Assembly: GCA_031288595.1 (NCBI GenBank)
Contig: JAITRB010000005.1
Span: forward strand, 13,373-45,372
Direction of reading: 5' to 3'
Length of the DNA stretch: 32,000 bases
Origin: Puniceicoccales bacterium
GTDB lineage: Bacteria; Verrucomicrobiota; Verrucomicrobiia; Opitutales; JAIRLG01
Made by a program: the position numbers and the translations under genes. Below are positions 4,261-22,161 of this stretch, piece by piece (position 1 is the stretch's first letter; every line of letters starts with the position of its first letter). Below the pieces are notes generated by a model. That model searched no databases, was not told the DNA's origin, and saw only the letters and a program-made list of their open reading frames with translations.

Positions 4261-4358
4261 GTCGGCTGGCTTTTGATGCCAAAGGCATCGGGCCCGCGGA
4301 GCGGGCCCACAGTGGAGGCCAGGACTCTGTCCTGGCCTCCACTGAAAAGCCAGCCGAC
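4261..4358 (+). repeat. Cloverleaf palindromic element, copy F (unique closing stem)
   Basis: Closing helix GTCGGCTGGCTTTT (4261-4274) / AAAAGCCAGCCGAC (4345-4358), 14 bp perfect. Hairpins GATGCC-AAA-GGCATC (4275-4289), GGGCCCGC-GGA-GCGGGCCC (4290-4308) and CAGTGGAGGCCAGGA-CTCTG-TCCTGGCCTCCACTG (4310-4344). Confidence 0.85.
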
Positions 4359-4424
4359 AGCACCTTGGCCCCGCGATTTTTTCCAGGAGCCTCCCGAGTA
4401 GCTCTAAAAATTTCAAAGAATGGA

Positions 4425-5261
4425 TCACAGAAAATACCTCTCCTGCCTTTCGGAGATCGGCCGGCCCACCCGTCGCATGACCGCCAGCATATCCTCCCAG
4501 ACGAGCCGCTTCGTGGCGCTGGTCTGGTTCCGCAGCAGGTAGGAGGGATGGAAGGTGACCATGAGAGGGATGTCTTGAAAGAAATACCACTGGCCACGGC
4601 AGAGGGTGATTCTCCGCTGGCTGTCGTATCCCAGAAGCCCGTTGACCGCAGTAGCCCCCAGTGCGACGATGACTTGGGGTTGGACGATCTCCAGCTGGGC
4701 CCGAAGATAGGGCAGGCAATGTTCCATCTCTTCCTGTGTAGGCGGGCGATTTCCCTGTTCCGCCGAAGTCTCGGGTCGCCAGTTCATGATGTTCGTGATG
4801 TAGACCTCCTCTCGCGTCAGACCCATGGCGAGGATAATTTTCGTCAGCAGCTGCCCCGCACGCCCGACGAAGGGAATGCCCTGGATTTCCTCATCTGCCC
4901 CGGGCGCTTCGCCGCAGAAGAGAATGTCCGCTTCCAGATTCCCAACGCCAAAAACCAGCTGTTTGCCCGGCCGCAGATGCCGCTGAAAATCTCTGGAATT
5001 CAGTACCTGTGCGCGAAGCCATTCCCACTGTTCCTGCTTAGGACCAGGGGGCAGAGATACGGCCATCGTGCCGTCGTCCAGTAGAGCTTGCTGCGAGGGC
5101 GGTGAGGGGATATGCTTGGAAGAGGACATGACTTGGGGAGTAGTTTTCAGAGTTTCCAGGAAGAATTGCCAGTTCTCGAGGCCGATGTAAATCTCTCGTT
5201 GGCCGGCCTCTCTCATCGACTGAAGTGTCCGGAGCAGAAGTGTGTGAGGTAAGTCGCCCAT
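4425..5261 (-). CDS. Uracil-DNA glycosylase, family 4, with an N-terminal extension of about 90 aa
   Basis: 278 aa with the motifs GEAPGADEE, FVGRAGQLL and HPSYLLRN. Confidence 0.8.
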   Translation of the reverse strand: MGDLPHTLLLRTLQSMREAGQREIYIGLENWQFFLETLKTTPQVMSSSKHIPSPPSQQALLDDGTMAVSLPPGPKQEQWEWLRAQVLNSRDFQRHLRPGKQLVFGVGNLEADILFCGEAPGADEEIQGIPFVGRAGQLLTKIILAMGLTREEVYITNIMNWRPETSAEQGNRPPTQEEMEHCLPYLRAQLEIVQPQVIVALGATAVNGLLGYDSQRRITLCRGQWYFFQDIPLMVTFHPSYLLRNQTSATKRLVWEDMLAVMRRVGRPISERQERYFL

Positions 5262-5348
5262 AAGCTTCTTTTAACGAAATTCATCCCACTTGGCAAGGCA
5301 TAAACCTTGCGCTTGCCAGGTATACGATTAGGCTTGTCCCTTGGAGAC

Positions 5349-6158
5349 ATGAAACGGCGATTTTATCTTCTTCTGGCAGGAGGGATTCCCTGGCCATTGG
5401 GGCTCCTGGGGACTGCAGATGAACCGACATCGGTGGCTGCGGTTCAGGTTCAAGAGAACACAACATCTGCAGGAGCTCTCATAGGCATGCCGAGTACTTC
5501 TGCGGTGGCGCGCACTCCGCCGGTGGCGGAACCAAAGCTGGACGAGGCAGCGGGACTGCAGGATGAAACCATCATCGAGACCTGGATGAGGGTTTTGATC
5601 CAAAATGCGCTGCGCTGTCTGCGGGAGAATCCCTGGAAGACCCTTTCTCGCCTGAAGTCGGCTCGGGGCCTGCTGCTGCTGGGGCCGGAAAAATTGGGAA
5701 GTCTGCTGGGGGTGCACGCCGGGGCGGCCCTCGGGTTTTACCGGAGAAGCGATGGACACTGGGGCCTTCCGGCCATCTACCAGGTCGAATCGAAATCGCC
5801 CATCAAATGGGGTGAGGTGAGCTCGCTGATTCTGCCCATCGAAGACGAGAAGACCCAGGTAAGCCTGCTGTTGCCCCAATGGCCCTGCGCGGTGGCGGCG
5901 AAAGCGCCGCCAAACTTCGGCCCCTCTTCGGAACTTGCCCAGGAGCTGGAGAAGGAGGAGAGTCCTTCGCTCTGGATTTTTCCGGAATCGAGGGATTTTC
6001 CCAAAAAGCTGGAGCTGATCTTCCACTTCAACCGCGAGATCAATGAGGAATTTTATGGGAAGGAAGGAATCCGGGCCGTGGATATTTTTTTTGACGATAC
6101 CGCTGAGCCAGCGCACCTGAGAGAATGGTGGAATTTTTTGAAAAAGGTCTTAAACTAG
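5349..6158 (+). CDS. Hypothetical secreted protein (weak SYLF/Ysc84-like pattern)
   Basis: The ORF track starts at TTG 5307. The first ATG (5349) gives a signal-like MKRRFYLLLAGGIPWPLGLLG. The central ARGLLLLGPEKLGS..GFYRRSDGHWGLPAIYQVES loosely resembles SYLF domains. The antisense ORF 5328-6116 is Arg-rich and looks non-coding. Confidence 0.5.
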   Translation: MKRRFYLLLAGGIPWPLGLLGTADEPTSVAAVQVQENTTSAGALIGMPSTSAVARTPPVAEPKLDEAAGLQDETIIETWMRVLIQNALRCLRENPWKTLSRLKSARGLLLLGPEKLGSLLGVHAGAALGFYRRSDGHWGLPAIYQVESKSPIKWGEVSSLILPIEDEKTQVSLLLPQWPCAVAAKAPPNFGPSSELAQELEKEESPSLWIFPESRDFPKKLELIFHFNREINEEFYGKEGIRAVDIFFDDTAEPAHLREWWNFLKKVLN

Positions 6159-6769
6159 AGGCCGTGAAGGGGGAATTCAGGCGGGCCCAGGGTTTTTTGC
6201 TCATCGAGGTCGTCGTGGCCCTGGCGGTTTTTGCCGTTTCAGCCGCCATCATCGTCCAGAGCTTCGCCAATGGGCTTGTGGCTAAGTACCAGCGGGAGAA
6301 CTCACCCGACGCGGGGGACCGGTTGCTGTTTCTGGTGGATCAGGTCTTTGAGCAGATCAGAGGGGGAAGGTCCAGCAAAGAGGACTTGGCCAACGGTGGG
6401 GAGATGCATTTCCCCGATGGGAGCTGTTGGCGCTGGAAGATGCTGTGCCAGCCAACGAATGTGCTGAATCTCTTCCAGATTTCCCTGGAGTTGATTCTCC
6501 CGAAGGGACAGGAGGAGTACCAGTTCTACCGTTGGGTGCCTGAGTGGAAGGATTGGGACCAGGAGACAAAGGCCAAGGAGTATTTTCAGAAAAATAAGGG
6601 AAAGGGCTTGGGGAAACCCAAGAAGTCTCGGAAGGGAAAAGCTCAAGTCTTGGGGTTTGTCTCTTCGCTGTCTTTGGATTCCGGAGGAATCGACCCGCGC
6701 AGCGGGCCCCAGGATAAAAACAAAAGGGAGTTTTGTTTTTATCCTGCAAAGACAGCGAAGTACTGCTGA
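6125..6769 (+). CDS. Prepilin-type N-terminal domain protein, GspI-like minor pseudopilin
   Basis: QGFLLIEVVVALAVFAVSAAIIV is a prepilin cleavage/methylation motif plus hydrophobic helix. An alternative GTG start at 6164 would give a 9-aa leader and remove the 34-nt overlap with the upstream gene. The last 35 or so codons and the stop lie inside repeat copy B. Confidence 0.6.
   Translation: MVEFFEKGLKLEAVKGEFRRAQGFLLIEVVVALAVFAVSAAIIVQSFANGLVAKYQRENSPDAGDRLLFLVDQVFEQIRGGRSSKEDLANGGEMHFPDGSCWRWKMLCQPTNVLNLFQISLELILPKGQEEYQFYRWVPEWKDWDQETKAKEYFQKNKGKGLGKPKKSRKGKAQVLGFVSSLSLDSGGIDPRSGPQDKNKREFCFYPAKTAKYC
6663..6760 (+). repeat. Cloverleaf palindromic element, copy B (GCTGTCTTTG-type)
   Basis: Closing helix CTTCGCTGTCTTTG (6663-6676) / CAAAGACAGCGAAG (6747-6760), 14 bp perfect. 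Hairpins GATTCC-GGA-GGAATC (6677-6691), GACCCGC-GCA-GCGGGCC (6692-6708) and CAGGATAAAAACAAAA-GGGAG-TTTTGTTTTTATCCTG (6710-6746, 16 bp perfect). Confidence 0.9.
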
Positions 6770-6885
6770 TCCACACTGGAAAACCCTATCTTGCTTCACC
6801 TTTCGATTCTCTGAATTCTCTGCAAAGAGCCGTAGGGCTGATGAGTGCTGGAGGGAAGCAGAGACGGCAATTCCCTTTCGCCCTT

Positions 6886-6905
6886 GACCCCAGGGGTCGC
6901 TTTTT
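6886..6905 (+). terminator. Weak intrinsic-terminator-like hairpin plus T-run
   Basis: GACCC-CAG-GGGTC followed by GCTTTTT. The stem is short (5-6 bp). It lies between repeat copies B and C, downstream of the pseudopilin-like ORF. Confidence 0.3.
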
Positions 6906-6936
6906 CAGTCTTCTGGAGATCCAGGTGTTCCGTTTC

Positions 6937-7032
6937 CCGCTGTCTTTGGATTCCAAAGGAATCGGTCCGCATAGCGGTCCCCAGGGGTAAAGGGAAGGCT
7001 TTGCCTTCCATTTACTCCTGCAAAGACAGCGG
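6937..7032 (+). repeat. Cloverleaf palindromic element, copy C (GCTGTCTTTG-type)
   Basis: Closing helix CCGCTGTCTTTG (6937-6948) / CAAAGACAGCGG (7021-7032). Hairpins GATTCC-AAA-GGAATC, GGTCCGC-ATA-GCGGTCC (one mismatch) and CAGGGGTAAAGGGAAGG-CTTTG-CCTTCCATTTACTCCTG (one G-T pair, one mismatch). Confidence 0.85.
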
Positions 7033-7058
7033 CGCTTGCCTGAAAACGCTCAGAATTT

Positions 7059-8162
7059 ATGCTGCGAGTGGGGATTGTTGGATTGCCCAATGTGGGGAAG
7101 AGCACGCTCTTCAATGCCCTGACGCGGACGTACAAGGCCGCAGCGGAGAATTATCCTTTCTGCACCATTGAGCCGAACGTGGGCATGGTCGAGGTGCCGG
7201 ACGGGCGCCTCGAACCTCTTAGGAAAATGGCCAAGACGGAGAAGGTGGTACCGGCCGTCATCGAGTTTGTCGATATCGCCGGTCTGGTAGCCGGTGCATC
7301 CCGAGGTGAGGGGCTCGGTAACCAATTCCTGGCCCACATCCGCGAGGTGGATGCCATCCTGCAGATCGTCCGCTGTTTTGAGGATGAGAGCATCGTCCAC
7401 ACGATGGGAGTGGTGGATCCGCTGCGGGACATCGGGATCATCCGTACAGAACTGCTGCTGGCTGATCTGCAATCAGCGGAGGGCCAGCTGGAGAAATGGC
7501 GCAAGAGGGCCCGCAGCGGCGAGAAGGAGGCGGTGGAGCAGGTGGGATTGCTGGAAAAAATCTGCGCCCAGCTGGACCAGGGGAAAGCCGTAGGGACCTC
7601 GGCGCTATCCGCTGAGGAACGGGCCCAGGCAGAAGTTTTCCATCTCCTGAGCTCGAAGCCGATGCTCCTCGCCTGCAACGTGGCCGAAGGGGATTTAAGT
7701 GATCCCTCGGCCAATCCTCATGTGGCCCAGGTGGGACGGCATCTCCGCGAGGAGGACGAGGGAGAGCTCTGTGTCGTGAGCGCCCGTATCGAGCAGGAGC
7801 TTACCGCCCTGTCTCCGGAGGACGCCCGGACCTATCTGGAGGCAATCGGTGTGGGGGATAGCGGCGTGGCCCAGCTGATCCAAAAGAGCTATGCCCTGTT
7901 AGGCCTAGCCTCCTATTTCACGGCCGGCGAGAAAGAGGTGCATGCCTGGACTTTTAGATGGGGGATGAAGGCACCAGCCTGTGCGGGTCTCATCCACGGC
8001 GATTTCGAGCGGGGATTCATCCGGGCGGAGGTGATCGGTTACGAGGACCTGAGAAGGGCCGGCTCGGTGGCCCGTGCTCGAGAACTAGGCACCTATCGCC
8101 TAGAGGGCAAGGATTACGAAGTGCGGGATGGCGATATCCTGGTCTTCCGCTTCAACGTATGA
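7059..8162 (+). CDS. ychF: Ribosome-binding ATPase YchF
   Basis: 367 aa. P-loop GLPNVGKSTLFNALT, then NYPFCTIEPNVG and DIAGLVAGASRGEGLGNQFL, plus a C-terminal YchF/TGS block HAWTFRWGMKAPACAGLIHGDFERGFIRAEV. Confidence 0.95.
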   Translation: MLRVGIVGLPNVGKSTLFNALTRTYKAAAENYPFCTIEPNVGMVEVPDGRLEPLRKMAKTEKVVPAVIEFVDIAGLVAGASRGEGLGNQFLAHIREVDAILQIVRCFEDESIVHTMGVVDPLRDIGIIRTELLLADLQSAEGQLEKWRKRARSGEKEAVEQVGLLEKICAQLDQGKAVGTSALSAEERAQAEVFHLLSSKPMLLACNVAEGDLSDPSANPHVAQVGRHLREEDEGELCVVSARIEQELTALSPEDARTYLEAIGVGDSGVAQLIQKSYALLGLASYFTAGEKEVHAWTFRWGMKAPACAGLIHGDFERGFIRAEVIGYEDLRRAGSVARARELGTYRLEGKDYEVRDGDILVFRFNV

Positions 8163-9340
8163 GGGCATTGCGGCTTCGGGACTTCCCTCTGGCTCTGGAT
8201 GGGTCCCGTCCCGACTTCCTGATCATCGCGGGAGAGGCCTCTGGAGATGAGCATGCGGCCCGTATGGTAGAGGGTTTATTCTGCGAGAATCCCCAAGTGT
8301 CGGTCTATGCCTTCGGCGGGAAAAATCTCCAGGCGGCCGGTGCCCATCTGCTCTATGATCTGACGCAGCACGCGGTCATAGGCCTGTGTGAGGTTTTGAG
8401 GAATCTCGGCCTGTTCCGGCAATTGCTCGCGGCGGTCATCGACTGGGTGGCCATCCACAGGCCGCGTACGGTCTGCCTGGTGGATTACCCGGGCTTCAAC
8501 CTGCGATTGGCCAAACGCCTTTTCCAAAGGGGCTTGAGCCGGAAGGGTGGCGGCGAGGTCGCGCTCTACTACTACATCAGCCCGCAGATCTGGGCCTGGA
8601 AGGCAAAGCGCCGCTTTGGGATGGCCCGCTGGCTCGACCATCTGGGGCTTATCTTTCCCTTTGAAAAGGATTTTTTCGCAGACATCCCGCTGCGGGTCTC
8701 CTTTGTCGGCCATCCCTTGTTGTGCGCCAAAGCTTCTTTCCTATCGTACGCTCCCCAGGGGGTACTGCTCCTGCTACCCGGAAGCCGCGTGGCGACCGTC
8801 CGCCGGCTCTTCCCGCTGATGCTCGAAACTTTTCGGCGACTGCAGCCCCAATTCCCACACCTCTTAGCGGCGGTGCCGTATGCCGACGAGGGGGTGTTGG
8901 AAGAATTGCGGGGGATATTTGCAGGGTACGAAGACCTTCGGTCCTACCTGCGATTTGTTTCCGTTTCAGGCCCAGATCTTCCCTGTGCGGCGAGCCTGAT
9001 GGTCTCCGGCACCATGTCCCTCAGCTGCGCTCTGGCCGGTATCCCTGGGGTCATCACCCATAAAATCCATCCCCTGAGCTACTTCCTGGCCAGGCACTGG
9101 GTCAAGATTCCCTACATCGGCATGGCCAATATTCTGCTGAAGCGGAAGTCGCTGCCGGAGTATATCCAGAGCGAGGCCGAGCCTTCTGCCCTGTGCGAGG
9201 AAGTCTCGCAGTGCCTGCGGGATCCCAGGAGAATCGAACAGGCGCAACAGGATGCCGAAGCCCTGAGGGCCATCCTTGGAGCACAGCCGGATCTGAAGGT
9301 GGCCGAGTGGCTCCTCACTTCGCTGGAGGAGAAATTTTAG
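8159..9340 (+). CDS. lpxB: Lipid-A-disaccharide synthase
   Basis: The ORF is open from 7958, but ATG 8159 (MRALRL..) overlaps the ychF stop (ATGA at 8159-8162). The LpxB N-terminal motif IIAGEASGDEHAARM follows, and the length (393 aa) fits LpxB. Confidence 0.85.
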   Translation: MRALRLRDFPLALDGSRPDFLIIAGEASGDEHAARMVEGLFCENPQVSVYAFGGKNLQAAGAHLLYDLTQHAVIGLCEVLRNLGLFRQLLAAVIDWVAIHRPRTVCLVDYPGFNLRLAKRLFQRGLSRKGGGEVALYYYISPQIWAWKAKRRFGMARWLDHLGLIFPFEKDFFADIPLRVSFVGHPLLCAKASFLSYAPQGVLLLLPGSRVATVRRLFPLMLETFRRLQPQFPHLLAAVPYADEGVLEELRGIFAGYEDLRSYLRFVSVSGPDLPCAASLMVSGTMSLSCALAGIPGVITHKIHPLSYFLARHWVKIPYIGMANILLKRKSLPEYIQSEAEPSALCEEVSQCLRDPRRIEQAQQDAEALRAILGAQPDLKVAEWLLTSLEEKF

Positions 9341-9410
9341 GGGAAAGCCTAGGTCTTACACGGGAAAGGCCGATTTGGGGAATTTCGGGCCCGGATATTT
9401 GGGCGGAGCT

Positions 9411-9509
9411 GGCGCTGTCTTTGGATTCCGGAGGAATCAGCCCGCGCAGCGGGCACCAGAGCGGCAAATGAAAAGGCCTTTTCATCTGCCGCTCTGCAAA
9501 GACAGCGCC
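9411..9509 (+). repeat. Cloverleaf palindromic element, copy D (GCTGTCTTTG-type)
   Basis: Closing helix GGCGCTGTCTTTG (9411-9423) / CAAAGACAGCGCC (9497-9509). Hairpins GATTCC-GGA-GGAATC, AGCCCGC-GCA-GCGGGCA, and a long arm CAGAGCGGCAAATGAAAAGG/CCTTTTCATCTGCCGCTCTG (9457-9496, one mismatch). Confidence 0.9.
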
Positions 9510-10570
9510 GGAGCCGATGGCCCCCCTTCTTCCCGCACGATTTCCCGGAGTTTGGGCAGCCAGCGGCGATGGGGCCCTGAGAGGGGGATCTGTTTCAGTT
9601 CCGCAGCCGAGAACCAGCGGCCATCGGAGGGTATCGGGGTCCTCTCATCGACTTTTAAAATGTGAAACTTTTCCGTGAACCGTGTGAGGCCGATGCTTCG
9701 CCTGCCCGTAAAGATGGGCGGGAGGAGTTTTGGGGAAAACGGAATTGGAATTTCCGGGAATTCCCAGATGAGGGCCGTAGGCTTGCTCGGAATGCCCATG
9801 GGCGATAAGAGGAGCCGGTCCCGGTGGAAAAAGAGGCCGCGGGCCTTGCTGGCTTTTCTGTAGCTGGGGATCTTGAATCGCGGGATGCTTTCGGCCGTCG
9901 CGTGGAGATGGGCCCGACAATGAGAACGTAGGGGGCAGAGCAGGCACTGTGGGTGCTGTGGCAGACAGATCAGCGCGCCGAGCTCCATGAGCCCCTCATT
10001 GTAGAGGGCATGGCGTGGGGAATCGAGGCAGCGCTCGGCCAAGGGACGTAGGTAACTCAGGGCCTGCGCCTGGCCGTCGAAGGCACGTTGGATATTTCCG
10101 AAGCGCAGCAGGACGCGGAGAATATTTCCATCCATGACGGCCACTGGTGTATCTTGAGAAAAGCTGGCGATGGCCGCCGCCGTGTAGCGGCCGATGCCGG
10201 GGAGTTTTTCCCAATCGCCGACCGTTTGGGGCAGATGCCCTTGCCGTCGAATGATTTGGGCGATTTCGTGGAGTGCCGAGGCACGCCGATAGTAGCCCAG
10301 TCCTTCCCACAGGCCTAGAACCTCCACCTCATCAGCTTGGGCTAGGCTTTCCAGGTCAGGGAAGCGCCGGATCCATCGCTCGAAATAAGGCACGACCGTT
10401 TTGACCTGGGTCTGCTGGAGCATCATCTCCGAAATGAGTGTGTGGTAGACGGAGCGTTTCTGGCGCCAGGGCAGAGAGCGAGCCTGGTGGGCATAGAAAT
10501 CGATCACCGCTTGCCTGAGAAAGAGGATTGCCTTTCGGGATAGGTGGAGTGACGGCATGGGATGAGCCAT
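9482..10570 (-). CDS. mutY: A/G-specific adenine DNA glycosylase
   Basis: 362 aa with LISEMMLQQTQV, GLGYYRRA and VMDGNILRV, and an Fe-S cluster pattern C-x6-C-x2-C-x5-C in CLPQHPQCLLCPLRSHC. The last 8 or so codons and the stop lie inside repeat copy D. Confidence 0.9.
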   Translation of the reverse strand: MAHPMPSLHLSRKAILFLRQAVIDFYAHQARSLPWRQKRSVYHTLISEMMLQQTQVKTVVPYFERWIRRFPDLESLAQADEVEVLGLWEGLGYYRRASALHEIAQIIRRQGHLPQTVGDWEKLPGIGRYTAAAIASFSQDTPVAVMDGNILRVLLRFGNIQRAFDGQAQALSYLRPLAERCLDSPRHALYNEGLMELGALICLPQHPQCLLCPLRSHCRAHLHATAESIPRFKIPSYRKASKARGLFFHRDRLLLSPMGIPSKPTALIWEFPEIPIPFSPKLLPPIFTGRRSIGLTRFTEKFHILKVDERTPIPSDGRWFSAAELKQIPLSGPHRRWLPKLREIVREEGGPSAPALSLQSGR

Positions 10571-10630
10571 GCCGCGAAAAACTTTAGGTTTGGCAATACG
10601 GAGGAAATTTTTATAAAGGGAGGCTGGCTT

Positions 10631-11122
10631 ATGGATCGCAGGGAACAGGTGAATTTGTTACTAAAGGGGGTCTCGAAGCGCCTGGGGCTTGGGCTGAGAT
10701 TCGACGGAGAGGCTAGTACCTGCCGGTTTCGGGATAACGGCTCGCAGCGGCATTATATTTTGGAAGTACTGGAGAATCACGACATGCTCTACATCTACTG
10801 CCCACTGATGGAAGTCCCCTGCGAGGGGTGTGAGACCTTCTTTCAATTCCTCCTGAGCCTCAACCTGCATGGACTCCTGACGCAGCATGCCTTCGTCGGC
10901 CTCGATGAGGTGAAAAATCTCATCGTCATGTCCTACTCCTTTCCCATCGAGCTTCTGGATGAATCGCTGCTCTTCAACCTGATCGTCCACTTCACCTCCT
11001 CGGCTGAAAAGGTCTACCAGATGCTGGACAATTTTCTCAAGTCGAGCTCCTTTGCGAAGGGCATCGGGGCGAGCCGCAGGAATGACCTGGCTAAGACGAG
11101 CCGGCTCAGGGTTCGGGTTTAA
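10631..11122 (+). CDS. Type III secretion chaperone-like protein (CesT/Tir-chaperone-like or YbjN-like fold)
   Basis: ATG 10631 is preceded by AAAGGGAGG 8 nt upstream. 163 aa, acidic. The pattern LGLGLRFDGEASTCRFRDNG..ILEVLENHDMLYIYCPLMEVP...FFQFLLSLNLHGLLTQHAFVGLDEVKNLIVMSYSFPIELLDESLLFNLIVHF matches the layout of class I T3SS chaperones. Confidence 0.55.
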   Translation: MDRREQVNLLLKGVSKRLGLGLRFDGEASTCRFRDNGSQRHYILEVLENHDMLYIYCPLMEVPCEGCETFFQFLLSLNLHGLLTQHAFVGLDEVKNLIVMSYSFPIELLDESLLFNLIVHFTSSAEKVYQMLDNFLKSSSFAKGIGASRRNDLAKTSRLRVRV

Positions 11123-11129
11123 CAAAAAG

Positions 11130-11804
11130 ATGTCGGAATTCCCCTATGCCTTGGGCTCAGCTTCGACGGGGTCGGTGCAGGAGACGATTGCCTCTTCCAG
11201 TGAGCCGAAAGGACTGGAAAATCCGGTCAGTTCAGTGGCGGACTTGCTGCGATCCCATGGCGAGCTGGTGGGCTCTCCGCTGGTGGAAGTGGCGGAAGCG
11301 AGAATGGATTTGAGTGTCGTTGAGGAGAGTGAAGAGGAATCGACCCGCAGCATCGGCCAGATGGAGAGGGAGGGGATTTTTCTGGATACCGACGGTGATG
11401 GGATTCCGGACTACCGCGACCTGAGTGGCAGCGAGTCGCGCTTCGCGCAGGAGGCGGATAAGGGGATGAGCAATGCGATGGAAATGCTGAGGGCGATGAT
11501 GGGGAATGTTCTCGGGTTTAATTTCCGACCCGATATCCTGAAGTCGGAGGAGGCCGTGAGTGAAATTTCAAAGGCACAGGGCGGAAACCTGCAGGCGACA
11601 CTGGCGGCTACCCATAGAAATCGCGTCACAATGGACTTCGATGTCGGAGTCTCGTCCTGGCGTCGGATGGCCCAGAAGCGGAGGGACCTCTTCCGCCGGA
11701 CGAGGGAACTTAGGGGGCTTAGCCATATGGAGGGTTTTTATAAAAATATGCCCCAAGTGGCGGATCGCTCGCGGATAGATGCTGATGTGTCGAGGCCGCG
11801 CTGA
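11130..11804 (+). CDS. Hypothetical protein, possible secreted effector; contains one DxDxDG calcium-binding-like motif
   Basis: ATG 11130 lies 7 nt after the chaperone-like stop. 224 aa with no signal peptide. Ser/Thr-rich N-terminus MSEFPYALGSASTGSVQETIASSSE, a DTDGDGIPDYRD motif, and no family recognised. Confidence 0.5.
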   Translation: MSEFPYALGSASTGSVQETIASSSEPKGLENPVSSVADLLRSHGELVGSPLVEVAEARMDLSVVEESEEESTRSIGQMEREGIFLDTDGDGIPDYRDLSGSESRFAQEADKGMSNAMEMLRAMMGNVLGFNFRPDILKSEEAVSEISKAQGGNLQATLAATHRNRVTMDFDVGVSSWRRMAQKRRDLFRRTRELRGLSHMEGFYKNMPQVADRSRIDADVSRPR

Positions 11805-11837
11805 GGATTTTGAGAGGAATCGTTTGTGATGCTTTGT

Positions 11838-11937
11838 GGGCGATGGCCCGTCGGAGAACGGCCTTTGGCCGTTCTCCGACTCCGGCTGTTTTCATGCAAT
11901 GAAAACAGCCATCTGGCTTTGCCAGGGGCCATCGCCC
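11838..11937 (-). repeat. Cloverleaf palindromic element, copy H (GCGATGGCCC-type sub-family)
   Basis: Closing helix GGGCGATGGCCC (11838-11849) / GGGCCATCGCCC (11926-11937), 12 bp perfect. Hairpins GTCGGAGAACGGC-CTTTG-GCCGTTCTCCGAC (11850-11880), GGCTGTTTTCAT-GCA-ATGAAAACAGCC (11884-11910) and CTGGC-TTT-GCCAG (11913-11925). Confidence 0.85.
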
Positions 11938-12075
11938 CACAGCACGCCCCATAAGCTCTCGTCTCCCGCCGCCAACGCCTTTCCCTCTGTCTAGATTTCC
12001 CATCTCCAAACTCGGATGTTCCTCTGACTATTTGCTTGTAAGGATCCCCAACGCTTCCAGAAATGCGAGGACTGA

Positions 12076-12644
12076 GTGGAGATCGATCGGGAGAAAATTG
12101 AGAGGAGCGTACGGCTCCTGCTGGCAGGAATCGGCGAGAATCCGAAACGCGAGGGCCTGTTCGGAACACCGGGACGAATCGCTGCGTTTTTCGAGGAGTT
12201 CTTGGGCCTAAGGGATACATTTGAAAGTGTCCGGAAGCTGTTTCAGGTCGAGTCAGATGGCCGCTATGTGCTCTTGGCATTCCCTTCTATTCGCTCTGTG
12301 AACATCACTTCCTGCCCTTTTACGGCAAGGCATCGATGGCCTATGAAGTGTCCCAGAAGCGCGTTCTAGGCCTGAGAAAATTCATGCGCTTAAGACTCTG
12401 TACCGGCCACCTACAGCTGCAGGAGCACCTGGCGGAGGAACTGGCGAATGCCCTTGTGAAGGCGACGGACGGCGGGAGTGTCCTGATACTCCTGGAGGCC
12501 GAGCATCTCTGCACCCGCATGCGGTGGCTTAGGTCGGAAGGAGCCTGCTACGTAACCCGAGCCCTGAGGGGGAATTTCGCCGGCGACACCGCCCTGCTCT
12601 CGGATATGCTGGCGATGATCCGTCTGGGAAGGACAGGACTCTGA
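12076..12644 (+). pseudogene. folE: GTP cyclohydrolase I (FolE) interrupted by a frameshift
   Basis: Frame 1 (GTG 12076 to stop 12369) encodes the FolE N-terminus (LLLAGIGENPKREGLFGTPGRIA). Frame 2, open from 12225, encodes GIPFYSLCEHHFLPFYGKA...LQLQEHL...EAEHLCTRMR up to stop 12644. By homology the frames join near 12270-12280. Confidence 0.75.
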
Positions 12645-12652
12645 GCAAATCG

Positions 12653-13829: not shown

Positions 13830-14826
13830 TCTGGGCGATCGGGAAACCCAGCTCCGCAAAGCCGTAGGACTTCTGCAGGAGAGCTTTGGACTCTTCGCCC
13901 TTTCCGGTCTCTGGGAGACGGAGCCCTGGGGGCGTGTCCGGCAGCCGCCTTTCCTGAACCTCGCCCTGGGCCTCGAAGTTTCCGGGTCCATCGAGGCATT
14001 TTTCTCCCACATTCAGGCCATCGAGCAGCGGCTCGGCAAGAGGAGAGATGGCTTCTGGGCTGCCCGCAACATCGACATCGATCTCCTCTTCTGGGGCCAC
14101 GAGCATTACCGTTCTCCGCATCTGCTGGTTCCGCATCCCTACTGGCATCAGCGGGCATTTGTCCTAAAACCTCTTCTGGAAATCGCCCCGCTACTCAATC
14201 CTGGAGGGAAAAATCTTCCTTTCTGGCTGCGGCGCTGCGAAGCCGAAGATCCATCAGTTGCTGCGCGCCGTGTCGGCCAACTCGAAGGCATTTCTCTCCC
14301 TCCACCTACTCCCTTGAGCTACGAGGAATTGGAGGCACAGGGAGTCATCCTTAAGGGAATCGCGGGGGTGGATGCCCGGCAGGGCCTGGCACGCGAAGGA
14401 AGGATTCCCTGGGAGCTTCCCGAAGACCGTTCCTTTTTTCGCGAGCAGACCCGCGACGGCATCCTATGCCTGGGACGCAAAACGATGGAATCCCTGCCGC
14501 ATGCCTTCGCTCCGGAGGAGCGCGAACTGTGGATTCTGAGCCGGAATGCGTCGTCCTGCGACCGTTTTCCCGCTGCCCTGGTCTTTCACCATCCGAGAGA
14601 ACTGCGAGATGTGCGGACGCCGAAGAACATTTGGATCTGCGGTGGTGGGGAGGTTTATGCGCAATTCCTTCCTCTCTGCTCGGAGATCTATCTCACGCAA
14701 CTGGCGGCGGATTACAACTGCGACCAGTTCCTCGACCCTTCCTGGCGGAAATTGTTCTCCGAAATGCGCTGTCTCAAACGCAATCCCCATGACGCCGTTT
14801 GGTACTACCGACGTCTTGGAGAATAG
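13798..14826 (+). CDS. Bifunctional HPPK (FolK) / dihydrofolate reductase (FolA) fusion
   Basis: The N-terminal half has HPPK motifs: VYLSLGTNLGDRE, NIDIDLL and LLVPHPYWHQRAFVLKPLLEI. The C-terminal half has DHFR motifs: GRIPWELPEDRSFFREQT, LGRKTMESLP, WICGGGEVYAQFLP and IYLTQL. It is a single 342-aa ORF. Confidence 0.8.
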   Translation: MTRVYLSLGTNLGDRETQLRKAVGLLQESFGLFALSGLWETEPWGRVRQPPFLNLALGLEVSGSIEAFFSHIQAIEQRLGKRRDGFWAARNIDIDLLFWGHEHYRSPHLLVPHPYWHQRAFVLKPLLEIAPLLNPGGKNLPFWLRRCEAEDPSVAARRVGQLEGISLPPPTPLSYEELEAQGVILKGIAGVDARQGLAREGRIPWELPEDRSFFREQTRDGILCLGRKTMESLPHAFAPEERELWILSRNASSCDRFPAALVFHHPRELRDVRTPKNIWICGGGEVYAQFLPLCSEIYLTQLAADYNCDQFLDPSWRKLFSEMRCLKRNPHDAVWYYRRLGE

Positions 14827-14847
14827 ACGCTTGAGGGGAGTTTTTTC

Positions 14848-14876
14848 TTGCCTCATGTATACAAGCACCGTAATAT
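14848..14876 (+). promoter_or_regulatory. Sigma70-like promoter candidate
   Basis: TTGCCT (14848-14853), a 17-nt spacer, then TAATAT (14871-14876). It lies at the start of a 510-bp non-coding gap upstream of the galE-like gene. This is a motif match only. Confidence 0.3.
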
Positions 14877-15336
14877 AAAAGGAGAGGAGGTATATACTGC
14901 CTCAATTCTGAAGGGAAGGGTTATGGTGGGAAAAATTCATCTGGCGGGGCTTAGTGCTCTGTGGGGCACTCTGTCTGTAGGGTATGCCGAGCGTTGGCCG
15001 AGAAATGGGATGACCTAGGAAGAGCTTCGCATTGCCGTGTACTGGAAGAACAAAACAGCTTTGTCGCCTCATGCCGAAGCTCGACCAGCACCCGCTTGTG
15101 CGATGTCGAGGACAGGTGGGGCCGGCGAAGGTGTTGACTTGAGAGGATACCCTGGTTTCCCTCATCTTGAGATGGATGGATCTGTTTGGCTCTGTAATCC
15201 TGATTTGGCCAAAACGCCTGAGCTGGAAGCTCCGGAAGACCCATTTGGGTTCCGTTCCTGAAAGGGGCCGTATTTCCCTCCTGAGGAGGGGGAATGGGTC
15301 CGCTGCGAAGAGCTTCTGGTCGCAGAGGGAAATTTT

Positions 15337-16314
15337 ATGCCAAACGTATTGGTGACCGGAGGTTGTGGCTATATCGGCTCGGGTCTTGTTCATCGGCTGA
15401 AACGCCTGAGCTATGGTGTGTCGGTGCTGGATTCTTTGGTTCATGGGGATAGGGGAGCGATTCCGGAAGACGTCCCGCTCTATGTCGGGGATTACGGCCA
15501 CCTCGCTCTGATGGAACAGATTCTATCGGAGCAGGTGGTGGACTGCGTTCTGCACTGCGGGGCCTGGACGGACGTGCGCGAATCGCTGGCCTGGCCGATG
15601 ATGTACTTCGTCAACAACCTGGCCGGAACGATGTTTTTGCTGCAGGCCATGGTTCACAAGCACGTGAAGCAAATCATCTACCTATCGACGGCGTCGGTCT
15701 ATGGAGAGGTGGAGAGTGGTTTAGCGGATGAATCGCAGGTCCCGAATCCCATCAATCCCGACGGGATGACGCATCTGGGCGTCGAGCAGCTTTTGGCAGC
15801 TCTGGCGGAGTCCGAGCGCTGGAGCGTCGTCATCCTCCGTCCTTCCAATGTCGTAGGACGGGCCTCGTCGGGGGAAAGTATTTCTCTGAAGAAAGATAAC
15901 CTGTTCTCCATTCTGGGTGAGGTCGTGAACGGCGAACGGGAATCCTGCGAGGTTTTCGGTAACGACCGACCCACGTTCGACGGCACGGCGGTTCGGGATT
16001 ACGTCCATGTGGAGGATGTGATCCATGCCTTCATCTCCGCCCTGTCGTCCATGCCGGCGATGGGGACGAGGGGAAGCTATAACCTCGCCTCCGGTCGGGG
16101 ATATTCGGTCCGAGAGGTCATTCGGAGCTTCGAAAGGATTTTCGGCAAGAGGATTCCCGTTGTGGAGTCAGACGCTCATCCTGGGGAAATCGCCCGTTCC
16201 GTTCTGGACCCGAGGAAGGCACAGCGGGAACTTCACTGGGAGCGGCGGTTCGATGATCTGAAAACTCTGGTACGGGATACCTGTCCGGGGAGAGAGGGAG
16301 AGCTTTTCGGCTGA
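15337..16314 (+). CDS. UDP-glucose 4-epimerase-like extended SDR (GalE homologue with atypical active site)
   Basis: 325 aa. Rossmann motif VLVTGGCGYIGSG, then STASVYGE and the GalE-specific block FGNDRPTFDGTAVRDYVHVEDV. Where GalE has PYGxSK, this protein reads PDGMTH. Confidence 0.8.
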   Translation: MPNVLVTGGCGYIGSGLVHRLKRLSYGVSVLDSLVHGDRGAIPEDVPLYVGDYGHLALMEQILSEQVVDCVLHCGAWTDVRESLAWPMMYFVNNLAGTMFLLQAMVHKHVKQIIYLSTASVYGEVESGLADESQVPNPINPDGMTHLGVEQLLAALAESERWSVVILRPSNVVGRASSGESISLKKDNLFSILGEVVNGERESCEVFGNDRPTFDGTAVRDYVHVEDVIHAFISALSSMPAMGTRGSYNLASGRGYSVREVIRSFERIFGKRIPVVESDAHPGEIARSVLDPRKAQRELHWERRFDDLKTLVRDTCPGREGELFG

Positions 16315-16377
16315 TGGAGGGAAGGTTCTTTTGAGGGGTATTCGGAGAGGTGGTCTTTGGGGCTGGTTTCAAAATCT

Positions 16378-16485
16378 GGCGCGATGGCCCGTCGCTAAAC
16401 GGACAAAAGCCGTTTAGCGACAGGGCTCTCCTCCGCGCGGAGCGCGGAGGAGAGCCCCTTTGCTCCGCAAAGGGGCCCTCGCGCC
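16378..16485 (-). repeat. Cloverleaf palindromic element, copy I (GCGATGGCCC-type sub-family)
   Basis: Closing helix GGCGCGATGGCC (16378-16389) / GGCCCTCGCGCC (16474-16485), 12 bp with one mismatch. Hairpins GTCGCTAAACGG-ACAAAAG-CCGTTTAGCGAC (16391-16421), GGGCTCTCCTCCGCGC-GGA-GCGCGGAGGAGAGCCC (16423-16457, 16 bp perfect) and CTTTGC-TCC-GCAAAG (16458-16472). Confidence 0.85.
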
Positions 16486-16518
16486 AAAAGATTCCAGCAG
16501 TTGGAAATCACCGAAGCA

Positions 16519-18720
<2,202 letters not shown>

Positions 18721-18836
18721 GGCCAGTATAACTAGCCGAAAATACCCTCAAGACGAGCCTTTATCCGGCGGCGGGGTTCTCCTGCAATCCGTCCGATGTT
18801 TTCGCTTGTTTTAAAAGCTGGAAAGCGCTGTCTTGG

Positions 18837-18926
18837 GCTCGCTGTCTTTGCAGGGATGAAAAGTCTCCTTTTCATCCCTGATGCTCGCTTTGCGAGCGAG
18901 CCCTTCGGGCTCCAAAGACAGCGAGC
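18837..18926 (-). repeat. Cloverleaf palindromic element, copy E (GCTGTCTTTG-type)
   Basis: Closing helix GCTCGCTGTCTTTG (18837-18850) / CAAAGACAGCGAGC (18913-18926), 14 bp perfect. Hairpins CAGGGATGAAAAG-TCTC-CTTTTCATCCCTG (18851-18880), GCTCGC-TTT-GCGAGC (18883-18897) and GAGCCC-TTC-GGGCTC (18898-18912). Confidence 0.9.
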
Positions 18927-18981
18927 ACCCTTCCCTGTAGCCCCCTTCCCTCTCCAGTACCGATTCCTCGGTCCTCCTCCA

Positions 18982-19362
18982 TTATGGGTTCTCTCCTTCG
19001 CTGTTTGGGGAACGTCTCACTAAAATTGCCCGCATGGGGTCGTGATTCAGCATTTTCAGAGCGGTCTGGATGTTTTCCTCCGTGCAATCCACCAGAACTT
19101 TCACCTCGGAGTCGTTTTTCTCTCGGTCGATGCTGCAGAGGATGCCGATGACGCGATGCCCCCGCAGGTCTCCCAGGAAGACATCGATGCCCTCGCCATC
19201 CTGGGATCGCGTCCCATTGATAAAGCCGTAGTCCATCGGATAGATGAGTTGGGGAAAGCGCGGATGCGAAGATCCTCTGGGCCGGTCGATACTCAGGCCG
19301 TTCTTCTCGATCAACGCCTCCAGGGCTTGGAAAAATTCGTCCGGATTCTGCGAAGTCTCCAT
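18982..19362 (-). CDS. Small inorganic-pyrophosphatase-like protein
   Basis: 126 aa. The block YPMDYGFINGTRSQDGEGIDVFL resembles the family I pyrophosphatase core (YP.nYGfip.T...DGDP.Dv). The protein is shorter than a canonical PPase. Confidence 0.55.
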   Translation of the reverse strand: METSQNPDEFFQALEALIEKNGLSIDRPRGSSHPRFPQLIYPMDYGFINGTRSQDGEGIDVFLGDLRGHRVIGILCSIDREKNDSEVKVLVDCTEENIQTALKMLNHDPMRAILVRRSPNSEGENP

Positions 19363-19691
19363 GGCCTTTCCGTGTAGCCCGTGTATTTCTAAAGTTCCAC
19401 CACCTGCAAGCCTCTAGATAGAAGCGCTTCGCTTTTTCGACAAGCCGAAAGAAAGAGCTTCGAAAAGGGTAGAGCCATGGCTTGCTTGTGATTTCCCTTC
19501 AGGGAGTCCGCAGGGACAAGGTGAAGTTCGCAGAGCTAAGAGGAATCCATTCCCACATAAGCGGGCTGTTGAGCGCGGAGGGAATGCGAAATGTCTCTCT
19601 ATTTTTCACACAGCATGCCCTCCTCCTGAGCCGGTGGATTGCTTGGGGAGGAGTGATTTGGAACCTTGAAATACCCTGGAATCTCTGCTCA

Positions 19692-20426
19692 ATGGGCAAG
19701 CGTTTTATGGATTCCACCGTGCCCGTTCCGCTGCACGTCGGCCTCATCATGGACGGTGATGGTCGCTGGGCGATACAGCGGGGGAAGCCGCGTCTCTACG
19801 GCCACCGGCGTGGAGCGGAAAATGTCCGGCGCATCGTGGTCCACGCGCAATCCCTGGGCATCCGCTTCCTGACGCTCTACGCCTTTTCGCTCGAAAACAA
19901 CAGGCGGCCAGCGGTGGAGGTCCACGGTCTCCTGTCGCTCTTCGAGCTCTATGCAAGGCGCTGGCTGCCCCAGCTCTTGGAACAGGGAATCCGCATCCGC
20001 TTGATCGGAGATGTGGAGGCCCTGAGGCCATCGACGGCCCAGGCCCTGCGGAAGCTGGAGGAAAATACGCGAAAAGGGGAGAAGATGACGGTGATTTTGG
20101 CCGTCAACTACGGAGGCCGAGATGAGGTTCTTCGGGCTATTCGGCGTCTTTGGAACTCCGGCGAAAAGGAAGGACCGACCTGTTGGGAAGATTTTGAAAA
20201 ATTTTTGGACACCGCCGGTATTCCTGATCCGGATCTCATCCTGCGCAGCTCGGGCGAGATGCGGCTGAGCCACTTTTTGCCGTTGCAGTCCGTCTATTCG
20301 GAGCTTTATTTCCCTCCCGTTCTGTGGCCGGACTTCAGCGAGAAGGATCTGGATGAAGCCGTGGCCGTTTACCGCAGCCGCCAGAGGCGGTTTGGGCGAC
20401 TGGAGGGCCAGAAAAGGGACGCGTGA
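19692..20426 (+). CDS. uppS: Undecaprenyl-diphosphate synthase (cis-prenyltransferase)
   Basis: The ORF is open from 19482, but ATG 19692 gives a typical length of about 244 aa. Motifs: HVGLIMDGDGRWA, YGHRRG, LTLYAFSLENNRRP, and RSSGEMRLSHFLPLQ..LWPDF. The last is somewhat diverged from the usual RTSGE.R.SNFLLWQ. Confidence 0.85.
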   Translation: MGKRFMDSTVPVPLHVGLIMDGDGRWAIQRGKPRLYGHRRGAENVRRIVVHAQSLGIRFLTLYAFSLENNRRPAVEVHGLLSLFELYARRWLPQLLEQGIRIRLIGDVEALRPSTAQALRKLEENTRKGEKMTVILAVNYGGRDEVLRAIRRLWNSGEKEGPTCWEDFEKFLDTAGIPDPDLILRSSGEMRLSHFLPLQSVYSELYFPPVLWPDFSEKDLDEAVAVYRSRQRRFGRLEGQKRDA

Positions 20427-20429
20427 GAG

Positions 20430-21308
20430 ATGAAGGAGAGAATCGGAAGTTTTTGTGTCCTGTGGCTGGCGGTTCTGGGGATACTTGCGCTAGGAGGTGT
20501 GAGCGGTGGGGTGCTACTCCTCATCCTGGCCTCTCTGCTGACCCAGTACGAGCTCTGCCAGCTCTGCCGCAAGGCCGGTTACGAGCCTTACCTCTGGCAC
20601 TGTCTGGGCTATGGATTGCTGATGCTGCTCCTGGCCTATTTCCCCCCGGCTCCGATGTGCGGAGTGGAGGCGGCGATGATGGTTTTCGTCTGTGCCTTGA
20701 TCGAGACGACCTTCCATGCCTTTTCCAAAAAGGAACCGCGGGCCATCATCGGGAGTCTGGTGTCGACGGTCTGCAACCTGGTCTACCTGCCCCTGATGTT
20801 CAGCCTTCCCATCGCGATGTTGCGGGACTGGTCCTCGAAGGGAGAGGATAGGATGGCCCTCGCCTGTCTCCTGTGGATCATCGCCGTGGCCAAGTTCAGC
20901 GATGTCAGCGGGCTCTGCGTCGGCTCCCTCTGTGGCGGACAGAAACTGGCTCCACAACTGAGTCCTGCCAAGACGCGCCGGGGCCTGATCGGTGCCGTAA
21001 TCCTCGCCCCTCTGCTCGTCGGCCTAGGCAGCCGATTGCTCTTCACTTCCTTTTTCCCAAAAGATTTCTCGCCCCTCCGGGCCCTGCTGCTGGCGATTTT
21101 AATCGCGCTGATCGCCGCCTTTTCTGACCTCGTGGAATCCACGGTTAAGCGCCTGGCTCAGGTGAAGGATTCGGGGAAACTCATCCCGGGAATCGGGGGG
21201 ATTTTCGACCTGACCGACAGCCTGATTTTGGCTCTTCCGGTGGGAGTCCTGTACTTCCACTACTGGGAAAAAATATCCCCCGTCCTGAGGGCATGGGGAC
21301 TTTTCTGA
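20430..21308 (+). CDS. cdsA: Phosphatidate cytidylyltransferase (CDP-diglyceride synthase)
   Basis: 292 aa and polytopic, directly downstream of uppS. It has SPAKTRRGLIGAV and the C-terminal signature STVKRLAQVKDSGKLIPGIGGIFDLTDS. That signature carries I for the usual H and L for the usual R/K. Confidence 0.8.
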   Translation: MKERIGSFCVLWLAVLGILALGGVSGGVLLLILASLLTQYELCQLCRKAGYEPYLWHCLGYGLLMLLLAYFPPAPMCGVEAAMMVFVCALIETTFHAFSKKEPRAIIGSLVSTVCNLVYLPLMFSLPIAMLRDWSSKGEDRMALACLLWIIAVAKFSDVSGLCVGSLCGGQKLAPQLSPAKTRRGLIGAVILAPLLVGLGSRLLFTSFFPKDFSPLRALLLAILIALIAAFSDLVESTVKRLAQVKDSGKLIPGIGGIFDLTDSLILALPVGVLYFHYWEKISPVLRAWGLF

Positions 21309-21323
21309 GAGGGGATTCGTAAC

Positions 21324-22013
21324 GTGGCAGCCGGCATCCTCTACGTCGTCGCGACGCCCATCGGTCATCTTGGGGACTTCTCGCTGCGGGCACTGGAAGT
21401 TCTGAAGAACTGCGAGGTGCTGGCCTGTGAGGATTCACGCGTCAGCTCCCGTCTATTGACCCGTTACAAGCTTTCCCGTCCGCTGATTCTCTACAATGCC
21501 GCCCATGAAATCCGCCAGACGGCCGTGTTGCTGAAGAAATTAAAGCTGGGGAAAAATGTGGCCCTGATCAGCGATGCAGGGACACCTAGCCTGAGCGACC
21601 CTGGCTTTCGCCTGGTGCGGGCCTGCCGAAAGGATGGCATTGCCGTCCTGCCCGTTCCAGGGGCAAGCGCTGCGCTGGCGGCCCTCTCGGTCAGCGGCCT
21701 TCCTACAGAATCCTTCCTCTTCCTTGGCTTCCTTCCTCCCAAATCCTCGGCGAGGCAAGAGATTTTTCAGCGCTATGAGGATTGCCCTCATACCCTCATC
21801 TTCTATGAGGCCTGCCATCGCATCGAGAAGTTTCTCCAGGAGGCCCGAGAGGTTTTGGGCGATGCCCGTTGGGCCTGCGTGGCCCGGGAGATGACGAAAT
21901 TGCACGAGACTTATATCACCCGAACTTTGGGGGAAATTTGCGAGGAGAAGCTCTGCTTACCAGCCAAGGGCGAGTTCACCGTTCTCATCGCCAAGTCTCG
22001 CTTCACGCTCTAG
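21324..22013 (+). CDS. rsmI: 16S rRNA (cytidine1402-2'-O)-methyltransferase
   Basis: GTG start. The N-terminal motif LYVVATPIGHLGDFSLRALEVLKNCEVLACEDSR is typical of RsmI. 229 aa. Confidence 0.85.
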   Translation: MAAGILYVVATPIGHLGDFSLRALEVLKNCEVLACEDSRVSSRLLTRYKLSRPLILYNAAHEIRQTAVLLKKLKLGKNVALISDAGTPSLSDPGFRLVRACRKDGIAVLPVPGASAALAALSVSGLPTESFLFLGFLPPKSSARQEIFQRYEDCPHTLIFYEACHRIEKFLQEAREVLGDARWACVAREMTKLHETYITRTLGEICEEKLCLPAKGEFTVLIAKSRFTL

Positions 22014-22065
22014 GAGACTGAGGGCTTAGGGTTACTGGCAAAGGGGTGAATGAAGGTTGCTCTGG

Positions 22066-22161
22066 GTGTGCCGCCTTGGCTAGTGCCGGCCTCGGCCGAG
22101 GCCGGCGCTAGCGGCGGCCCGCTGCGCGGGCCGGAGCCCGGAGGGCTCCAAGGCGGCACAC
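22066..22161 (-). repeat. Cloverleaf palindromic element, copy G (unique closing stem)
   Basis: Closing helix GTGTGCCGCCTTG (22066-22078) / CAAGGCGGCACAC (22149-22161). Long arm GCTAGTGCCGGCCTCG..CGAGGCCGGCGCTAGC (22079-22112, one G-T pair). Hairpins CGGCCCGC-TGC-GCGGGCCG (22115-22133) and GAGCCC-GGA-GGGCTC (22134-22148). Confidence 0.85.

Follow-up and report, generated by a model that had tools for sequence, protein, structure and literature searches.

A 32,000-nucleotide stretch of the chromosome of a Puniceicoccales bacterium, in the following called the window, contains nine small intergenic elements (A to I, 90-107 nt each) in which base pairing is kept while the sequence is exchanged. 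The unit is laid out as a closing helix, two mini-hairpins of 6-8 bp with triloops (H1 and H2) and a long variable hairpin (H3), and as a set of nested inverted repeats it allows a four-way cloverleaf to form from either DNA strand. We see about an even chance that the elements belong to a clade-specific superfamily of REP/REPIN-like palindromic 'cloverleaf' DNA repeats, the symmetry of which is maintained by structure-dependent propagation or retention together with template switching. An earlier note on this DNA, made from the sequence alone, had argued that the changes in the copies do not reflect simple decay of a repeat but selection for the folded structure or a mechanism that regenerates it, and the strong covariation in every helix and the dominance of intact copies bear this out. 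On the level at which the structure is kept the note was silent; in sharpening it, the analysis points to the dyad symmetry of DNA rather than to an RNA fold.

Architecture of the nine elements

The window is an ordinary bacterial chromosome segment of ~58% G+C with housekeeping genes such as lpxB, ychF, glgB, uppS, cdsA, folP/folK-DHFR, mgtE and a UDG-family gene. All nine copies are intergenic or located at the ends of open reading frames (ORFs), with B and C forming a cluster. The minimum free energy fold of each element consists of a closing helix of 10-15 bp and three hairpins, that is, a four-way junction, with z-scores of -8.2 to -12.0 and equally good folds in 0 of 200 shuffles. The nine copies announced by the earlier note thus exist and fold as described; the range 4261-22161 assigned to them holds for B to I but not for copy A, which lies outside it. 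A covariance model run with filters off on the 32 kb recovered exactly A to I and nothing further above the E = 0.1 level. All nine fall into the first 22 kb, compared with zero elements found by the covariance model in the last 10 kb (22200-32000), where the spacers are mostly very short.

The termini GCTGTCTTTG/CAAAGACAGC are common to five copies, A to E, and the corresponding terminus pattern has 12 matches in the window, 10 of them within A-E, with 2.3 expected; the closing cores of F, G and H/I differ from this type (Table 1). Reading of the sequences agrees with the helices as previously listed. In B, C and D, H1 reads GATTCC/GGAATC; A has GATTCC/GGAACC (one G.T or A.C depending on the strand), F has GATGCC/GGCATC, and GAGCCC/GGGCTC is shared by E and G. 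Most copies have CCCGC-nnn-GCGGG as H2, and E has GCTCGC-TTT-GCGAGC. The copy-specific outer closing pairs of A to E are as quoted by the earlier note. The statement that the outer GA..TC of H1 stays fixed is correct within the window but does not extend to the wider family, where the second pair is A-U in 51 cases and C-G in 14.

Table 1. Coordinates of the elements and of associated features. Window elements are oriented H1 first, with ends set by pairing; loci outside the window carry L numbers; bit scores refer to the covariance model.
Feature	Position	Strand	Subfamily or type	Score	Structure and location
Element A	129-227	-	GCTGTCTTTG	91.8 bits, E 2.7e-21	conserved core 134-222; closing helix 15 bp including CTGTG/CACAG; H1 GGTTCC-AAA-GGAATC with one G.T; 64 nt downstream of the glucosaminidase gene (gene end at 291)
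Element F	4261-4358	+	GGCTGGCTTT	74.9 bits	closing helix 14 bp, GTCGGCTGGCTTTT/AAAAGCCAGCCGAC; H1 GATGCC-AAA-GGCATC; H2 GGGCCCGC-GGA-GCGGGCCC; H3 stem 16 bp
Element B	6663-6760	+	GCTGTCTTTG	88.7 bits	outer pairs CTTC/GAAG
Element C	6937-7032	+	GCTGTCTTTG	75.2 bits	outer pairs CC/GG; 27 nt upstream of ychF
Element D	9411-9509	+	GCTGTCTTTG	91.3 bits	outer pairs GGC/GCC; between convergent lpxB and mutY-like genes
Element H	11838-11937	-	GCGATGGCCC	22.4 bits, E 1e-3	closing helix 12 bp; hairpins of 13, 27 and 31 nt
Element I	16379-16485	-	GCGCGATGGCCC	29.2 bits, E 1.9e-5	one T.C mismatch in closing helix; between convergent epimerase and glgB genes
Solo degenerate terminus GCTGTCTTGG	18827-18836	+			directly outside element E
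Element E	18837-18926	-	GCTGTCTTTG	91.1 bits	outer pairs GCTC/GAGC; H1 GAGCCC-GAA-GGGCTC; H2 GCTCGC-AAA-GCGAGC
Element G	22066-22161	-	GCCGCCTTG	41.6 bits	closing helix 13 bp, GTGTGCCGCCTTG/CAAGGCGGCACAC
Nested locus L005	95-305		composite		inner element in outer H3
Nested locus L023	2075-2340		composite		inner element in outer H3
Nested locus L054	2570-2805		composite		inner element in outer H3
Loop motif, L023	2150-2166		GGGTGGGTGGGG motif
Loop motif, L009	390-405		GGGTGGGTGGGG motif
Loop motif, L025	3590-3605		GGGTGGGTGGGG motif
Loop motif, L054	2670-2700		GGGTGGGTGGGG motif
Loop motif, L060	2270-2300		GGGTGGGTGGGG motif

Covariation of the helices

In a structure-blind MAFFT alignment of 66 GCTGTCTTTG copies, 96.2% of the cells pair compared with 79.1% upon shuffling (0/500), and with the partners slid along the alignment pairing amounts to 38-48%; the covariation score is 0.359 vs 0.107, and 26 of the 44 pairs have changed on both sides. 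A model-fitted alignment of 149 distinct rows from all subfamilies, which leans towards structure and includes some opposite-strand rows, gives 97.8% pairing against 73.0% shuffled (0/500), with 33 of 36 pairs changed on both sides and 1,278 two-sided against 64 one-sided cells.

Because the sequence ends were defined by pairing, the outer closing pairs were tested separately with fixed flanks. In this non-circular test, complementarity at offsets 1-4 past the 10-nt core is 96/85/87/57% compared with 47/33/35/31% upon shuffling, with three or four pair types found at each position. Sibling copies at different loci have outer pairs in common and the differences between siblings are compensated, and the outer pairs are therefore the element's own and not the target's; a derivation of these pairs from the stem of a target hairpin is ruled out by the same sharing. 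Among sibling copies, compensated stem changes (47) are set against 37 uncompensated ones, and the change per nucleotide is ~4x higher in the loops than in the stems. Intact copies are far more common than disrupted ones, as 68/68 distinct pattern-defined Puniceicoccales copies fold; what else fits the degenerate terminus pattern is for the most part an element truncated at the end of a contig, a variant copy or a chance hit within a coding region.

Orthologous spacers and site turnover

The organism of the window is a sister species of the metagenome-assembled genome (MAG) Pcl387_bin38, with 86-87% nucleotide identity in genes, and in the orthologous spacers of the two both arms of a helix change together, as the earlier note had proposed to check. 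The ortholog of element I has GTCGC/GCGAC vs GTAGC/GCTAC, a change from C-G to A-T, with a heavily altered middle hairpin that still pairs perfectly, and the ortholog of element G has CTAG/CTAG vs CTGG/CCAG, a change from A-T to G-C. Element E and its ortholog have 3 differences over 82 positions, which fall exclusively into loops and leave the stems unchanged (BLAST 95.7% over 93 nt), in surroundings where the flanking genes have diverged by ~13% and the flanking spacer is barely alignable. Directly outside E, the solo terminus GCTGTCTTGG (Table 1), which has a counterpart in the sister species (L044 about 2995-3015), is probably the remnant closing arm of an older element at the same site.

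The sites themselves turn over. At the position of C, Pcl387_bin38 holds the interior of the window element B, which is located 272 bp upstream, between two flanks that are those of C, and this arrangement indicates replacement by gene conversion or re-insertion. Equally, elements of other subfamilies or orientations occupy the corresponding spacers in four more distant species, the YchF of which is 74-76% identical; the sites concerned lie downstream of the glucosaminidase and the UDG-family gene, upstream of ychF, and between glgB and the epimerase gene. The D, H and extra-I sites are occupied in some species and not in others; in the more distant species, D and H are empty wherever the spacer is covered, and clean insertion boundaries were not found when the D site was compared with the distant species. 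The extra-I site refers to the sister species (L044 5575-5675), where the spacer between the epimerase gene and the I ortholog contains an additional GGGGCCGCCTTTG element together with short tandem repeats of GATTTGG/GATTCAG-like sequence over ~100 nt; the window has neither.

Nesting of elements in hairpin loops

At three composite loci (Table 1), a complete inner element is located exactly in the apical loop of the H3 hairpin of an outer element, the closing helix, H1 and H2 of which are intact; in L054, the inner element splits a 4-nt loop as CT|CT. In a fourth, partial case, cut by the end of the contig, an element abuts the 3' arm of H1 of the G ortholog and is located in the H1 loop. 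A direct target duplication is not visible in the flanks of either simple or nested copies. A precedent for insertion into hairpin loops is IS1397, which reportedly inserts into REP units (work cited in PMC3116915).

In related MAGs, hairpin loops of the elements repeatedly contain a G-rich motif, GGGTGGGTGGGG or its complement, that could form a G-quadruplex (Table 1); it may represent a second small module inserted into loops.

A strand-symmetric signal

Several independent counts speak for DNA as the level at which the structure is kept. An energy-model-free count over ~5,940 stem pairs gives 105 mismatches (~1.7%); on the oriented strand, 42 of these are G.T (0.7% of the pairs) and 37 are A.C, and G.T is thus not in excess. 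RNAfold-derived pairs had suggested more G.U than A.C (53 vs 29), but this difference disappears in the energy-model-free count and was discarded as a folding-model artefact. Of the recent compensatory changes, de-duplicated, 13 of 30 (43%) are of the transversion type and so have proceeded without a wobble intermediate. The orientation of the elements is random with respect to the upstream gene (33 same, 35 opposite, with 21 more between convergent genes) and to local GC skew (55 vs 57). About 65-70% of the H1 and H2 triloops are GNA or its complement TNC, with 12.5% expected, and in one orientation both forms occur alike (48 vs 44 in H1, 41 vs 42 in H2). The GNA loops show no significant bias for the replication strand (85 vs 67, p = 0.17) or for the sense strand of the gene upstream (48 vs 33, p = 0.12). 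C-GNA-G is known as a DNA mini-hairpin of extraordinary stability (PMC13037366, PMC3201870), and the sequence of H2 is precisely GC-GNA-GC.

On either strand, the 5' flank is rich in T and G and the 3' flank in A and C, which is the reverse of a terminator, and U-tracts were not found at the elements. A reading as intrinsic terminators was rejected on this flank composition and on a terminator scan that flags only an incidental H2; terminator-like sites in the window are at chance level, with 20 found and 22.2 expected. On the other hand, 89 of 142 elements (63%) are located at most 200 nt downstream of the stop codon of a long ORF. The Rfam 15 search of the elements gave zero matches at the gathering score; below it, only the sucA RNA motif matches, at window positions 16385-16456, which is element I, with 30.3 bits (gathering score 40, E 0.061), and this match shows that DNA palindromes can mimic RNA motifs.

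The H3 hairpin has composition features of its own. Its 5' arm, read H1 first, is strongly purine-rich (A 34%, G 36%, T 8%), and of 142 copies 27-31 have ATGAAA in this arm at a fixed distance of 8-10 nt from the apex, so that an inverted motif ATGAAA...TTTCAT results; examples of these features in the window are positions 18853-18880 and 9468-9492.

Distribution of the family

A terminus scan with free interior, with one genome per species, retrieved 66 loci, of which 50 stem from the three Puniceicoccales MAGs Pcl387_bin38, Pcl387_bin136 and Ct408_bin121. All 50 adopt the four-way junction, whereas the 16 in other phyla do not and were treated as chance matches. A structural scan, in which a hit had to combine a perfect closing seed with no fewer than 9 bp in the closing stem, three simple hairpins and no more, and an unpaired share of 22% or less, found 143 elements in about 430 kb (the window plus the Puniceicoccales loci), 65 with GCTGTCTTTG termini and 78 with other closing cores, including GCCGCCTTTG, GGCTGGCTTT, GCCGGCTTT, GCTGCCTTTG, GCGCGATGGCCC and a 79-nt GGGGCCCCGGGA type. 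On the same ~430 kb, the covariance model recovers about 145 distinct elements. The density is about one element per 3-4 kb, with clusters at B-C in the window and in L005 and L054.

The hosts are a small set of termite-gut Puniceicoccales (Verrucomicrobiota) comprising at least six genomes. A metagenome scan with LpxB retrieved only relatives at no more than 51% identity, and these served as a negative control; neither the structural scan nor the covariance model found an element in the 80 contigs (967 kb) fetched in this way. Equally, plasmid and phage records showed no similarity to the elements.

A 2.5-kb Logan contig of the window organism (L067, corresponding to window 6936-9415) ends inside elements C and D, and other short-read contigs of the clade end inside elements as well, among them at the ends of L058 and L044. 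The repeats fragment MAG assemblies, which could account for the very short contigs of Pcl387_bin38.

Neighbouring genes in the window

Positions 1-44 (+) are the 3' remainder of a tRNA gene (26.3 bits, E 0.17 against positions 29-71 of the Rfam tRNA model), which has no ARAGORN call because it is truncated by the start of the window; element A is therefore located between a tRNA gene and the convergent glucosaminidase gene. The ORF 6125-6769 (+) encodes a conserved protein with a prepilin-like hydrophobic N-terminus (GFLLIEVVVALAVFA) and, compared with three orthologs, a C-terminal extension of ~50 residues that runs right across element B. Likewise, the MutY-like ORF 9482-10570 has its last 9 codons within element D.

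Proposed mode of maintenance

If the elements are REP/REPIN-like DNA repeats, the preserved trait would be the dyad symmetry of the DNA and not the RNA fold of one strand. Propagation or retention would depend on the folded single-stranded or cruciform form, so that only copies still able to fold would leave descendants and new copies would preferentially insert into exposed hairpin loops. Within quasi-palindromes, intrastrand template switching could at the same time copy a change from one arm to the other, and thereby regenerate perfect stems without two independent mutations, and could also invert loops; the two processes would act together. The subfamilies are distinguished by the core of the closing helix, and with time the elements at a given site are exchanged by gene conversion or re-insertion. 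Compensatory changes have been described in REPIN hairpins (PMC3116915), and template switching perfects quasi-palindromes in Escherichia coli (PMC7202029). What the copies show directly is the architecture, the covariation, the DNA-like symmetry, the nesting in loops, the turnover at sites and the restriction to the clade, whereas a single-stranded intermediate, the action of template switching and a mobilising enzyme are inferred.

There is also a minor but real possibility that the family represents an undescribed class of mobile or self-maintaining DNA, in which the cloverleaf is recognised, copied and integrated as a folded single strand, preferably into the apical loops of other hairpins. 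The agent would then be a family of enzymes so far not connected with repeats of this kind, or there would be no dedicated enzyme, with template switching during replication driving both the spread and the symmetry.

A number of results weigh against maintenance as REP/REPIN-like repeats. A match to RAYT or IS200 TnpA was not found in 540 kb (tblastn with approximate queries, and a motif regular expression), which is a weak negative as part of each genome was covered, and a multi-copy, transposase-like ORF family is absent near the elements in the Puniceicoccales loci and the window (about 420 kb). Loops that appear inverted between siblings, GGA and TCC in L011/L041 and GAA and TTC in L013/L033 and in L017/L039, account for only 3 of 12 fully different triloops and are not significant against a family loop pool dominated by GNA and TNC. 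The elements show no strand bias with GC skew, as might be predicted by lagging-strand single-stranded DNA transposition of the IS200/IS608 type, and no clean pair of filled and empty sites from close strains was found by exact-protein look-up, which yielded only the 2.5-kb contig L067 of the window organism, or by the LpxB metagenome scan. Furthermore, the strong conservation of E could reflect a host function, and the frequent location shortly past a stop codon is compatible with a role in the 3' untranslated region (UTR).

Alternative explanations

The main rival is a structured RNA that acts in transcripts as a 3'-UTR stabiliser, RNase III site, terminator substitute or small RNA, with purifying selection on its fold. 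The very stable folds, the prevalence of positions closely downstream of stop codons, the conservation of E far above its flanks, and canonical terminators at chance level, which could make another 3'-end structure useful, would all fit such an RNA. However, an RNA would hardly be expected in random orientation to the upstream gene, with G.U pairs no commoner than A.C, unlike in known RNA families, with transversion-type changes making up so large a part of the recent compensatory ones and with GNA and TNC triloops on either strand; the flank composition is the reverse of that of a terminator, Rfam has no matching family, and one element can nest in the loop of another. We regard the RNA explanation as unlikely.

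A strand-symmetric signal would also be left by selection on a palindromic duplex, if the elements were bound as double-stranded DNA by a dimeric protein of the host, be it a nucleoid-organising factor, gyrase or an IHF-like protein, as described for REP/BIME. The conserved cores next to the junction (GCYGNCTTTG, the H1 types, GCCCGC in H2) and the ATGAAA/TTTCAT motif near the H3 apex speak for this rather unlikely option, which leaves unexplained the perfect complementarity in the middle of the H3 stem and in the outer closing pairs, stretches free of sequence constraint in which each position has 3-4 pair types, as well as the enrichment of GNA triloops and the insertion into loops. That the family consists of DDE-type miniature inverted-repeat transposable elements (MITEs), with the internal hairpins being incidental, is very improbable. 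Inverted termini, small size, high copy number and presence/absence between species are shared with such elements, but DDE-type MITEs conserve their tips, whereas the outermost 3-4 bp are here the least conserved and covary, every internal segment is palindromic and covarying, and several unrelated terminal cores are combined with one architecture; neither a target-site duplication in the flanks nor, in the about 420 kb, a transposase-like multi-copy ORF was seen.

Relation to known repeats

REP/REPIN repeats are the closest known kind, although two features that define REP, the GTAG and the short single or doubled palindrome, are lacking in the family. Both are high-copy, intergenic, palindromic, often clustered and clade-specific, persist vertically with subfamilies and show compensatory changes in hairpins, and for both a single-stranded DNA hairpin is proposed as the active form; the legend of Fig. 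S11 in the REPIN work (PMC3116915) discusses an alternative 'clover' fold. A GTAG 5' of the hairpin is crucial for TnpA-REP (PMC8266576), whereas in the present family no unpaired GTAG is located beside any hairpin or closing helix and the flanks are without a conserved motif. The unit is 80-125 nt long compared with roughly 20-40 nt for REPs, and it consists of a closing helix around three different hairpins, with H1 and H2 not inverted copies of each other, instead of a single palindrome or an inverted REP doublet; a gene for RAYT, a Y1 HUH transposase that REPs typically flank, was not detected in the 540 kb covered by approximate queries, which represent part of each genome.

The ends of IS200/IS605 elements and of their miniature derivatives (PATEs) resemble the family in the structure-specific recognition of single-stranded DNA hairpins and in the lack of target duplication (PMC8266576). 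They differ from it in being strand-specific and biased by replication direction; here, no bias and no conserved target tetranucleotide is visible, and TnpA was not found in the same 540 kb with approximate queries. Integron attC sites likewise keep structure and not sequence and are recognised as a folded single strand, but R''/R' core sites (GTTRRRY), L''/L' boxes, a cassette array and a nearby intI are missing in the case of the elements, which occur in both orientations between housekeeping genes. The structured MITE-like repeats Correia/NEMIS, ERIC, BOX, RUP and Rickettsia RPE are small intergenic repeats of about 100-150 bp with stable folds, too; co-transcription occurs in some cases and the extension of ORFs in others, the latter as with B and D. 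These repeats have conserved tips, usually show TA or other target duplications and form one long hairpin, in contrast to a four-way junction the arms of which are hypervariable but perfectly paired. Template switching in quasi-palindromes is a known mechanism that makes imperfect inverted repeats perfect (PMC7202029) and H2, as GC-GNA-GC, corresponds to the d(GCGNAGC) mini-hairpin (PMC13037366, PMC3201870), but both are known as local mutational or biophysical phenomena and not in the maintenance of repeats throughout a genome, in which they may participate here. Taken together, the elements lack the defining features of DDE-type MITEs, attC sites, intrinsic terminators and RNAs under structural selection and have no Rfam match at the gathering score, and they share the features of REP-like repeats in the broad sense.

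Significance

With about 145 copies in at least six genomes and with orthologous pairs, the family offers an unusually clean natural data set in which pairing is kept and parts of the unit are under essentially no sequence constraint. As the usual hallmarks of RNA selection are absent, it can serve as a test case to distinguish RNA covariation from the maintenance of DNA palindromes; covariation screens for non-coding RNAs would flag the family as a false positive. On the practical side, the repeats break short-read assemblies of this clade. If insertion targeted to loops and correction from arm to arm hold true, the family would show how complex nested palindromes arise and persist in bacterial genomes, and could lead to a new structure-specific DNA enzyme.

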